This document shows positions 4,022-39,275 of a stretch of DNA of 64,000 nucleotides, piece by piece (the first letter of the stretch is position 1; each line of letters begins with the position of its first letter). Origin of the DNA: an uncultured virus (IMG/VR IMGVR_UViG_3300010885_008506). Lineage: Duplodnaviria > Heunggongvirae > Uroviricota > Caudoviricetes. The position numbers were made by a program, and so were the translations under genes. Under the pieces are notes generated by a model. That model ran no database searches. It saw only the letters and a program-made list of their open reading frames with translations, and was not told where the DNA came from. The stretch spans positions 1-64,000 of the IMG/VR virus record IMGVR_UViG_3300010885_008506; one strand, written 5' to 3'.

Positions 4022-4609
4022 TTATACAGTCTCTGTAAATGTTGTGAAGCTTTGAATTCGTAGGGTGTAATCCACCTGAATAATACGATTCAAACTCTTC
4101 TGAACGGGGTGGAATACAACATGGGTAATCAAACGCTTGTTTGTGCCCGTGTTATCGTCCCAACACTTTAGTCCCAATTCGTCAAACACATAGTCACTAG
4201 TACTGGTTGCGTTGTCAAATGCTTCTTGCCCAAGAGGCTCGCCGTAGTCTAGTGTGCAAGTAACTACGATATCAGTATACTTCTTGCCTACAGTGTGGCG
4301 AACTTCCAAACGATTACGTGCAGGATCAGTATTGAGCCCGTTGTTGTCGTTTACAGTCTTGTAATAAGTTTCATTATGCAGTCCTGCACTTTGATTCAGC
4401 GTGTTTGGGGCTAGGTATGTGATAATTCCCGTGCTGTCGATGGTTGTCCCACCGTTGCCAAACGCCATTTCTTGAATGAACCCATGTCCGCGATCTGCTA
4501 GTGCATTAGCCATAGCAATTGAAATGTTTTCATAATGGATAGCGTTGTCCTTATCCACTAGTATAATGCCAGTCTCTGGCTCCCAAATCTTAATATGTCC
4601 CTGAATCAT
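4022..4609 (-). CDS. Virion/baseplate structural protein (tail-fibre attachment type)
   Basis: 195-aa ORF in the baseplate cluster; MAFGNGG...FDELGL...LITHVVFHPVQKS...VDYTLRIQ resembles baseplate fibre-anchor domains (inference). Confidence 0.6.
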   Translation of the reverse strand: MIQGHIKIWEPETGIILVDKDNAIHYENISIAMANALADRGHGFIQEMAFGNGGTTIDSTGIITYLAPNTLNQSAGLHNETYYKTVNDNNGLNTDPARNRLEVRHTVGKKYTDIVVTCTLDYGEPLGQEAFDNATSTSDYVFDELGLKCWDDNTGTNKRLITHVVFHPVQKSLNRIIQVDYTLRIQSFTTFTETV

Positions 4610-37105: not shown

Positions 37106-37169
37106 TTGAATATTATCTCAGGGCTTGGCCAACTGCTAGTTGATCCGCATGCATTACTTATCTCAGTTA

Positions 37170-37650
37170 CCATGATTGGCTTGCGCCAATCAGCTCTGCA
37201 TTCGCTTTAAGTTCGCATTCGCTCACTTAAGCTCACTTGAGCAATTTGTACGTCTAGGATAATGTTACTGTGTAAGAGTAAAAACTTTGTTACTGGGATA
37301 CTTTTCCTAGATTCAGTCATACTTCGCCCTGGTCGGGACAAGGTATGACTAAACGAATTTTTCCTGAGTTCGTACGTCACTGTGTTCAGGAACAGTCCTA
37401 TAGGACAGAGGCGGTTGCCCGATACCTCGTTCTTCCATACTTCGGCGATTAGCGCAACGGGACTTGTATGTACTGAGACACAGAATTATACACACAAGCT
37501 GCGGGTGAATATCTCGTTCAATCAGAGCCGCATCATTCAAAGCTCAACTCGTCATGCCATCCCGTGCATTTGCTAGATGCGTTCCACCTGCGGCCACCAC
37601 GCGAGCAGGATCACCTCGGGATACGGATCGTTCCGCAACTGGGGCTATAA
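37170..37650 (-). ncRNA. Candidate large structured non-coding RNA (~480 nt), family not identified
   Basis: Lies in a 615-nt gap in an otherwise gene-dense genome; about ten helices, two GCAA tetraloops and G-U pairs that work on the minus strand, a loop-loop pseudoknot, and an upstream TATAAGTA element. Ends are approximate. Confidence 0.65.
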
Positions 37651-37660
37651 AATACAGTAA

Positions 37661-37668
37661 TACTTATA
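37661..37668 (-). promoter_or_regulatory. Candidate late promoter variant (TATAAGTA) for the structured RNA
   Basis: One mismatch to TATAAATA, positioned just upstream of the structured region on the minus strand. Confidence 0.4.
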
Positions 37669-37723
37669 AGACCTTGCGTTTAACGTTAAATTTTACGGTA
37701 TACTCGTTTCAGCTATATACTTG

Positions 37724-38146
37724 ATGTGGACATTTCAAGGACAGGAAGTAACGGATCTTCCCGACGATATTGTGGGGTTTGTATACTGTATTACTAACCT
37801 AGCTAACGAGCGAATGTACATTGGCAAAAAGCTAGCTAAGTTTGCTAAAACTACCTACAAAACAGTTAAACTTAAGAACGGAAAGAAGAAACGCAAGAAG
37901 ATACGGGGCAAAGTAGAAAGCGATTGGCGTGACTACTACGGGTCCAGTAATGAACTAACTCGCGATGTTGAAGCACTGGGCAAGGACAAGTTTGCCCGTG
38001 AGATACTGTTCTATTGCCACAGTAAAGCTGAATGCTCTTATGTAGAAGCCCGCGAACAGATCCAGCGACGTGTGTTAGAAAGTGATCAGTTCTATAACGG
38101 GCATATACAAGTACGTGTGCATAAGAAACACATACGTAAATCTTAG
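37724..38146 (+). CDS. Stand-alone GIY-YIG family endonuclease-like protein
   Basis: GFVYCITN...MYIGKK, YYGSS, REIL, conserved-type E (YVEARE) and YN; Lys/Arg-rich insertion KLKNGKKKRKKIRGK; no separate C-terminal DNA-binding domain. Confidence 0.75.
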   Translation: MWTFQGQEVTDLPDDIVGFVYCITNLANERMYIGKKLAKFAKTTYKTVKLKNGKKKRKKIRGKVESDWRDYYGSSNELTRDVEALGKDKFAREILFYCHSKAECSYVEAREQIQRRVLESDQFYNGHIQVRVHKKHIRKS

Positions 38147-38379
38147 AAGAACGGTAGTCCGGACTTCTTGGTAGTTTCCAAGTTTTCTTTGTAAATCTCC
38201 GCAATAATATTACGATCGTCGTAACTTAGCATTAGTGCTTGATCTAGTGAGATCGCGCCGCGCATGCTCCAAGCTAACTTATAACAATCTTCCCTAATCT
38301 TGAGACAGTCTTTTTGATATGCATCGCAAAGCTCCTCAATTTCCTCAACTGTTAGTTGCTGGAGCCTCGAGCGAAAAAA
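38143..38379 (-). CDS. Probable -1 frameshift extension of the upstream baseplate-hub/tail-assembly chaperone
   Basis: Open -1 frame entered at the T-TTT-TTC heptamer (38379..38373): ...FFRSRLQQLTVEEIEEL...LAWSMRGAISLDQA...KKSGLPFF; no well-placed own start codon. Confidence 0.6.
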   Translation of the reverse strand, partial: FFRSRLQQLTVEEIEELCDAYQKDCLKIREDCYKLAWSMRGAISLDQALMLSYDDRNIIAEIYKENLETTKKSGLPFF

Positions 38380-39206
38380 TTGGTAGCGTCGAACTCCAGT
38401 TCCTGCTTCCACTTGTGTTGGCATTCCTGACATTCAACTTGGATTGGAGCCAGACTAAAGCTTTCCTTGTTGTTTGTGATACACTTGTTAATGCTGTCAA
38501 ACACATCGCTGCTGGTATTTTGTATGAAGTCTTCAATCATTGATCGATCGGTAACTTGTGTACCATCGGGTGTTTGGATACATGCAATGCTGTCCAGTAC
38601 AATTTCCAACGTTAGTGAAGTTAGCTTCTTAAATCCTTCGCTAAACTTTTTAATTTTGGTTGCTTCGTCTAGACTACTTTGCTGAATTTCCTGTAGTAGA
38701 CGCTGTTCTTCAAATGTTCTGTACTGTTTGTTATTCAGCTGACGGTATGTCATGGGTTTGAGCACAATGGTTAGCTCGTTTGCGTGAATGTAATCGTTCC
38801 ACACTCTGTGCAGCGTTTGTGCTTGTGCTTCCTTAAGGTCCAGCTGATAATTGTTAACAGCTTTACACTGCGGGCAATCAGGGCTAACGTCCATCATGCT
38901 ACCGTATGTTGCAATTCGTATGGCAATTAACAAGGTGTCGAGGTCTACACTGGGAATATTCCATGCATTTTTGATGGCAGGAACACAGCTTTGGATAATA
39001 TCCACAGTGCCCTGTCCGTTTAGCAGTGCGTCTGGCGTTTTAAGCGAAATCTCATCTTTTGCTGTCATGGGCATGATGCCAACTTCGCCCGTTGCGGGCC
39101 AATCAATGCTGCCGGGTTCGTACCATCTGCCTCCACTAGGCAAGGGAGTATAGTACTTAGCCTGTCTAAAATATGAACTCAGCGGGTTATTTTTAATTTC
39201 TGACAT
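38352..39206 (-). CDS. Baseplate hub assembly/tail assembly chaperone, T4 gp26/gp51-like
   Basis: NPL..YFRQ...LPSGG..Y...MTAKDEI.LKTPDALLNG...DLDTLLIAIRIATYG, two CxxC pairs (CPQC, CQEC), ends ATNFF; divergent from the tape measure gene. Start at ATG 39206. Confidence 0.7.
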   Translation of the reverse strand: MSEIKNNPLSSYFRQAKYYTPLPSGGRWYEPGSIDWPATGEVGIMPMTAKDEISLKTPDALLNGQGTVDIIQSCVPAIKNAWNIPSVDLDTLLIAIRIATYGSMMDVSPDCPQCKAVNNYQLDLKEAQAQTLHRVWNDYIHANELTIVLKPMTYRQLNNKQYRTFEEQRLLQEIQQSSLDEATKIKKFSEGFKKLTSLTLEIVLDSIACIQTPDGTQVTDRSMIEDFIQNTSSDVFDSINKCITNNKESFSLAPIQVECQECQHKWKQELEFDATNFFARGSSN

Positions 39207-39244
39207 TGAATTGCTTCCGTTTAAAAAACCGGTTTCATAACCGT

Positions 39245-39252
39245 TATAAATA
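39245..39252 (+). promoter_or_regulatory. T4-type late promoter TATAAATA
   Basis: Exact match 23 nt upstream of the tape-measure start, heading the head-gene run. Confidence 0.75.
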
Positions 39253-39275
39253 CACAACTATATATCTACCACACT

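Follow-up and report, generated by a model that had tools for sequence, protein, structure and literature searches.

A structured RNA with a concerted direct repeat in Rak2-like jumbo phages and bacterial islands, and its possible role as an RNA-primed replication origin

What is encoded in the longest stretch without an ORF within a jumbo phage's structural block, and what could it do? The DNA analysed here (the window) comprises 64,000 nucleotides of an uncultured member of the Caudoviricetes, positions 1 to 64,000 of IMG/VR record IMGVR_UViG_3300010885_008506. It covers the structural block of a Rak2/PA5oct/GAP32-like jumbo myovirus; the capsid protein is 61 to 67% identical to theirs, the gene order (gp47/46, gp26, portal, capsid) matches that of those phages, and a gp55-like sigma factor was also found. 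The ORF map confirmed that the gap at 37106 to 37720 (615 nt), which a preliminary description had picked out as the only long intergenic one, is the longest ORF-free stretch of the window. It is flanked by a 135-aa gene and a divergent SegE-type GIY-YIG nuclease gene (Table 1); at 38143 to 39257, the window holds a gp26-like gene and then a 96-aa ORF.

The same description had proposed a large, pseudoknotted non-coding RNA on the minus strand of the gap, preceded by the promoter-like element TATAAGTA. This element is also present upstream of the RNA in the closest relative, the one relative in which it was seen, and TATAAATA occurs three times in the window, every copy preceding a structural gene. 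ATAAATA is the proposed late promoter in CBB/GAP32 (excerpt of PMC5259590). A TAANTA motif lies 5 to 12 nt before the start codons of many genes of the window and of the related loci, often leaving little or no leader, and is probably the late promoter of this clade.

Table 1. Features in and around the gap, in window coordinates
Feature	Position	Strand	Evidence
SegE-type GIY-YIG nuclease gene, divergent from the RNA	37721..38146	+	PF19835, 117.6 bits
Late-type promoter-like TATAAGTA	37661..37668	-	putative function
Lineage-specific 5' multibranch domain, replacing the Polynucleobacter-1 domain of type A relatives	37559..37622	-	compensatory changes against one relative
UGCGG/CCGCA stem of type B, inner loop conserved	37500..37532	-	covariation; model alignment
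Long stem; loop 37483-37473 pseudoknots with 37389-37380	37462..37499	-	pairs 183:213, 185:211, 187:209, 193:202
Conserved multi-pseudoknot core	37380..37458	-	covarying pairs 221-223:249-251, 233-235:267-269, 240:258
Core helix GUUGC/GCAAC	37458-37454/37418-37414	-	
Core helix GAAC/GUUC	37432-37429/37393-37390	-	
Core helix GAGG/CCUC	37428-37425/37411-37408	-	
Direct repeat copy 1 (ACTC + word AGGAAAA)	37359..37369	-	
Hairpin between the two repeats	37315..37350	-	pairs 243:259 to 247:255, two-sided changes in type B
Direct repeat copy 2 (ATCT + word AGGAAAA); conserved RNA ends	37302..37312	-	
3' module: GAGCG..GCGAA motif (GTGAGCG 37226-37220) and C(GCAA)G hairpin	37173..37235	-	
ATAAGTA, likely late-type promoter of the next gene (37105-36698)	37155..37161	-	putative

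Structure of the minus-strand RNA

Every stem arm and motif of the proposed fold that we checked was found on the minus strand where it had been placed. Folding energy gave a modest signal, with z-scores against 100 shuffles of -2.39 for the minus strand (2 of 100 as good) and -3.28 for the plus strand (none of 100). Since folding energy by itself neither proves this RNA nor picks its strand, we let the homologues decide.

A search with the GIY-YIG protein provided the best 80 of 196 related viral loci, and a profile was built from 39 of those, excluding the window. It matched 68 of the 78 loci that differ from the window, a count in which the seed members are bound to appear, as well as 104 of 120 loci that a core pattern had picked out independently. 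The 144 full-length copies of this subtype (type A) were reduced to 104 at less than 93% identity (mean identity 68%); a second subtype (type B) gave 112 pattern matches, 44 of them non-redundant. No conserved open frame was found in type A, where 4 of the 104 copies have a stop-free frame and lengths are spread evenly over the three frames. A model of 33 type B sequences (R1), again excluding the window, scores the window at 81.8 bits (E 4e-21) and the type A locus L025 at 72.9 bits, the 3' core, repeats and hairpin being common to both. Each of 5 large records has the element exactly once, and nhmmer gave a single match each in 3 of 3. More divergent RNA subtypes lie beside GIY-YIG genes at L010, L013, L039, L023 and L159 (11 to 20 bits with R1).

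RNAalifold on the plain alignments mispaired the core and the 3' hairpin, and pair statistics were therefore taken from an in-house test that mimics R-scape and is not R-scape itself (G-test with background correction, compared to 20 tree simulations). In the 104 non-redundant type A homologues, 32 column pairs were significant at E≤0.1, 27 of them canonical; two of the other five are register or neighbour effects and three link the two 3' repeats. In type B, 5 of the 6 significant pairs are canonical. The type A pairs define a 5' pseudoknot, a stem-loop whose loop pairs about 75 nt downstream, and a compact core, and the RNA contains many invariant unpaired bases. Over the 27 covarying pairs, G-U cells outnumber A-C cells by 81 to 18, which supports the proposed minus strand, a preference that energy alone does not give. 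Covariation, together with the late-type promoter kept in one close relative, thus bears out a large pseudoknotted minus-strand RNA under selection, and we consider the structured element to be real almost beyond doubt. The RNA proper is an intricately folded non-coding RNA of ∼350 nt (about 37650 to 37300), while the terminal 130 nt of the region described earlier, 3' of it, look like DNA hairpins. The only RNA sequencing run found has three contigs in late genes and none over the RNA, at an uninformative depth of 3 to 7.

Not all parts of the first fold survived this comparison. The loop pseudoknot did, with covarying pairs 199:274 and 200:273, and the closest relative keeps 10 of its 11 pairs with a wholly different sequence; the UGCGG/CCGCA stem is likewise upheld by covarying pairs 19:45 and 20:44 in the 44 type B sequences. 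What had been read as a GNRA hairpin, CGG-GCAA-CCG, is replaced by a core helix in which GCAA forms the 3' strand opposite GUUGC, with support from pairs 221-223:249-251 in the 104 type A sequences and 88-90:120-122 in type B. The CGGA/UCCG hairpin is missing from the one relative having the 5' domain, and the UCUAGGA/UCCUAGA stem overlaps the second direct repeat and lacks covariation support. GUCC-UAUA-GGAC forms a variable insert. For the 5' multibranch domain, compensatory changes were seen in CCUGC/GCAGG (3 pairs) and in the closing stem, but in a single relative; scans of metagenome and viral sequences with this domain gave only the window's own phage and that relative, with 8 of 10 metagenome matches being due to chance. 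In a separate search, 2 of 5 matches were likewise chance ones.

Known families, cultured phages and bacterial islands

Neither Rfam nor ARAGORN gave a match to tRNA, tmRNA, RNase P or group I/II introns in the window, in agreement with the judgement made by eye. The window has no match to RF01718 at the gathering score and no Rfam match to known ribozymes or riboswitches or to GOLLD, ROOL or OLE either, two chance snoRNA matches (E 1.2 and 5.6) being all that was returned. The suggestion that the RNA was possibly undescribed holds in part: many relatives sharing the 3' core of the window begin with Polynucleobacter-1 (RF01718). This family matched 1 of 13 loci scanned (L025, 113 bits, first 136 nt) and 5 of 5 bacterial genomes carrying the element. 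It forms the 5' domain of the type A and island copies, which share the core, repeats and 3' module of the window; it differs in that the orphan model, of 141 positions, ends before the core, and the window has another 5' domain. What is already catalogued is therefore the front piece (∼140 nt) of some relatives, and not the core, repeats, tail or 5' domain of the window. In the literature, we found the element described only as a 2010 table entry, 'cis-reg y, switch ?', which marks Polynucleobacter-1 as a probable cis-regulator (Weinberg et al. 2010, excerpt of PMC2864571), and catalogues of candidate viral RNAs and preprint supplements could list parts of it.

That entry, and the compact multi-pseudoknot core with its invariant bases, would suit a ribozyme that processes itself or a core that senses a ligand, maturing the ends of the RNA or controlling the gene that follows. 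We regard this as distinctly unlikely: Rfam has no ribozyme or riboswitch match, the gene that follows differs between loci, frequently lies convergent to the RNA and in many cases is preceded by a promoter of its own, and the concerted repeats described below would be left unexplained. A retron, DGR or DRT was also sought, and 0 of 5 records (3 of them at least 90% complete) contained a PF00078 reverse transcriptase.

Searches of isolate phages by blastn with the window or a type A copy gave no match. The syntenic gap of GAP32 matches 72 isolate records, 25 of them over at least 80%, and includes the element, which is unannotated in cultured phages. All 12 aligned cultured phages keep the core helix with 5/5 pairs in three sequence variants, together with the loop pseudoknot, a duplicated word and a sigma70-like -10 box. 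Because R1 scores these cores weakly (XaC1 23.6 bits, RaK2 16.7, GAP32 9.6), homology rests on the motif-level match and shared anatomy. The syntenic gaps of PA5oct and Phosso gave no core match with R1, the 3' motif being present by eye, and in Vibrio phage 2.275.O a gene occupies the slot and there is no gap at that place. The four ncRNAs reported for PA5oct map elsewhere than its syntenic gap (excerpt of PMC7318152). One of the matching cultured phages, Sharanji (OR545507), was isolated on E. coli K-12; with the element present in cultured phages, the orphan motif from 2010 becomes directly testable. In phage UE-S1 (L386, 765-922), the 5' part of the element is annotated 'repeat_region', and GAP32-like genomes each have 4 to 5 partial matches to the GAP32 gap.

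The element has also spread to small bacterial islands. Six bacterial contigs carry it (one cut short and identical to another), two of them from Polynucleobacter isolates, and the islands are low in GC and encode an integrase, a small tyrosine recombinase, a gp44-like clamp loader and DUF6641. In 5 of 5 islands, TAAATA lies 109 to 120 nt ahead of the element match. Four of them (L390, L392, L393 and L394) combine an integrase, DUF6641 and a clamp-loader gene like gp44 of T4 with a late-type promoter of the phage kind, and are candidate satellites of jumbo phages in Polynucleobacter and other hosts; L390 also has a BstXI-type restriction-modification pair. No recognised Rep, primase or GIY-YIG was found among 28 chosen island ORFs. 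For one island protein, a confident fold (pLDDT 88.7) had no PDB match and the Atlas gave unnamed clusters only.

The duplicated word, the 3' module and the neighbouring nuclease

An unusual feature of the element is its direct repeat. The words after ACTC and ATCT are identical in 140 of 146 sequences (mean of 27.8 and maximum of 42 in shuffled controls), a figure biased upward by taking the best candidate pair per sequence; in 2 of 148 sequences the words were not located. An unbiased column covariation test finds the same link between the two repeats. When changes were counted over 100 type A sequences, on a tree that left out the word columns, each copy of the 7-nt word had changed 37 times and the two jointly 37 times. 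The repeats are spaced 47 to 67 nt apart without helical phasing, and both words sit in short stem-loops. We found no intramolecular partner, the complement of the word occurring in 3 cases compared to 8.0 in shuffled sequences. The flanks of the two repeats have not become alike, and this speaks against a simple gene conversion of the entire unit.

Two identical words without a complement inside the RNA point to one of two uses: they pair with the opposite DNA strand, or they are twin sites for a protein. The latter is how the words would be used in a trans-acting RNP scaffold or regulatory RNA, as binding loops for a dimeric phage protein, with the 3' hairpins acting as terminator or processing signals. 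The stem-loops holding both words, the many invariant unpaired bases and the late-type promoters, which suit a morphogenesis or late regulatory RNA, are consistent with such a role, but the 37 joint changes would each require matching changes in the protein. We consider it rather unlikely; the rate of change favours pairing with the opposite strand, for which perfectly joint changes make that strand the natural partner. The protein compared was the GIY-YIG nuclease, and in 68 proteins no column predicted the word (best accuracies of 0.79, 0.79 and 0.93 against baselines of 0.66, 0.54 and 0.90). An RNP with this neighbour is disfavoured, since the gene is exchangeable and does not predict the word.

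A further signal lies 20 to 100 nt past the repeats. The GAGCG..GCGAA motif, which is short, degenerate and was defined after the flanks were inspected, occurs on the RNA-sense strand of 69 of 100 flanks in type A and 23 of 30 in type B, compared to 5 and 0 on the other strand and a background of 0.4%. It is accompanied by C(GNA/GNNA)G hairpins on the RNA-sense strand (74 of 100 and 18 of 30; background 0.3%), a class also present on the other strand (37 of 100 and 6 of 30). GNA triloops are DNA-type hairpins. From its motif and hairpins, the 3' module is a candidate site for priming or loading on single-stranded DNA.

At 107 RNA loci of at least 2.9 kb, the neighbour is a GIY-YIG nuclease in 76, a RusA-like resolvase in 20, EndoVII in 1 and none of these in 10, never two together, so that a junction-type nuclease adjoins 97 of the 107. 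Three GIY-type genomes had no matches to RusA-like or EndoVII. This mutual exclusivity suggests that the GIY-YIG protein is a replacement resolvase rather than a dedicated partner, and its gene probably fills the Holliday-junction resolvase slot; SLX1 is a precedent for a GIY-YIG resolvase. At L062 (∼4130-4160), a remnant like the end of a GIY-YIG gene precedes the RNA, with another gene inserted between. Many isolate records, and PHROG 447, label this GIY-YIG family 'NAD synthetase'.

An RNA-guided system with the SegE-type GIY-YIG protein is highly improbable. At most type A loci the RNA begins 13 to 65 nt past the GIY-YIG match, as such a system might have it, but the gene is exchangeable, is divergent from the RNA in the window and is not beside it in enteric phages or islands. 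Relatives of this GIY-YIG family occur in 497 isolate records, and an RNA match lay beside 0 of 3 examined. An OMEGA-like system was rejected, as neither obligate linkage nor co-evolution with the nuclease was found.

The neighbours could also mean that the element is a cis site for another DNA transaction (entry of recombination-dependent replication, packaging start or genome resolution), at which the RNA would open the DNA and the junction nuclease cut the branch. Adjacency at 97 of 107 loci and the EndoVII gene flanking the element in most enteric phages examined fit this, and satellites also copy packaging signals. However, a junction-type nuclease does not adjoin the element at 10 of 60 type B loci, in RaK2 and XaC1 or on the islands, and adjacency may be plain core-genome synteny. 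We judge this explanation unlikely.

A possible RNA-primed origin and its known counterparts

The reading we prefer, with a probability of roughly 0.4, is that the element acts in cis as an origin module of Rak2/PA5oct-like jumbo myoviruses and is primed by RNA in a way resembling ColE1 RNA II. In the course of events that we infer, from transcription through hybrid formation and priming to origin activity, a promoter (late-type in the window, sigma70-like in enteric relatives) would yield the ∼350-nt RNA, which would fold into the pseudoknotted core. The intervening hairpin would hold the first word beside the second, the first word could then pair with the template strand where the second copy lies and so seed a persistent RNA-DNA hybrid, and the displaced strand would expose the DNA-type hairpins that load priming or helicase proteins. 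A nuclease would trim the RNA end into a primer. The model draws on the fold of the RNA, its single copy per record, the concerted words, the strand-specific 3' module and the recurrence of the entire module on islands where the 28 ORFs scanned included no recognised Rep or primase.

Several observations count against this origin model. Pairing over 7 nt is weak, and the absence of mismatched intermediates in the 100 type A sequences could reflect copying rather than pairing. A late-type promoter is odd for a first origin, and two island proteins without assigned identity could be initiators. RNase HI was absent from 5 of 5 records (3 of them at least 90% complete). In its favour, Phosso has an RNase H gene directly after the syntenic gap; that RNase H gave no tblastn match in 3 of 3 genomes. 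RNase H1 or a flap nuclease is noted in group 2 jumbo phages (excerpt of PMC7824862). Nucleotide skew was uninformative: none of the 3 genomes analysed (G001, G003 and G004) shows a switch at the element, and in all three the RNA runs with the majority strand, as most genes do. Compared to G003 and G004, the head-gene block of G001 at ∼170-230 kb is inverted against the majority strand; the RNA of G001 still runs with that strand. Our literature search found no replication origin or conserved structured RNA described for this jumbo-phage clade.

A wider proposal, which we advance tentatively and a shade less firmly than the origin reading, is that Rak2-like jumbo phages and satellite islands responsive to their late promoters share a multi-pseudoknot RNA that primes replication in cis through a self-matched, freely mutable word re-invading its own template. 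It would be an independent counterpart of ColE1 RNA II and would give Polynucleobacter-1 a function. New here are the link to cultured phages, the statistics of the concerted repeat, the late-type promoters of the islands and an origin model that can be tested. If the RNA is a primer, it represents a second invention of origin firing controlled by RNA folding and defines a satellite class of jumbo phages; even if it is not, a perfectly concerted direct repeat is an unusual signature that needs explanation.

Among known systems, GOLLD, ROOL and OLE are large pseudoknotted orphan RNAs, some of them in phages, and to our knowledge a direct repeat and a DNA-hairpin tail are not features of these. 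T4 oriF and oriG resemble the element in having a promoter and a downstream hybrid-forming (R-loop) region in a T4-like phage, but use a middle promoter and an unwinding element, and the excerpt of PMC4412123 describes no large covarying RNA fold for them. The element also resembles ColE1, which has a folded transcript, a repeated sense-strand word and a single-strand loading site (excerpts of PMC3167613, PMC4412123 and PMC5043065). There, pairing takes place between a run of rG in the RNA and a run of dC in the template (excerpt of PMC4412123); on the ColE1 sense strand, we found G6 twice, at 928 and 1175, ahead of the origin motif near 1191. GAGCG-N-AGCGA occurs once in ColE1, on the RNA-sense strand ∼135 nt past the origin, the position at which n'-pas/ssiA is located (excerpt of PMC3167613). 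The element differs in its several pseudoknots, in a variable A/G-rich word instead of a G run and in that RNase HI is usually not encoded. ColE1 gave no match with R1 and the element matched no plasmid, so that homology does not place it in the ColE1 family, although it may, by analogy, work alike.
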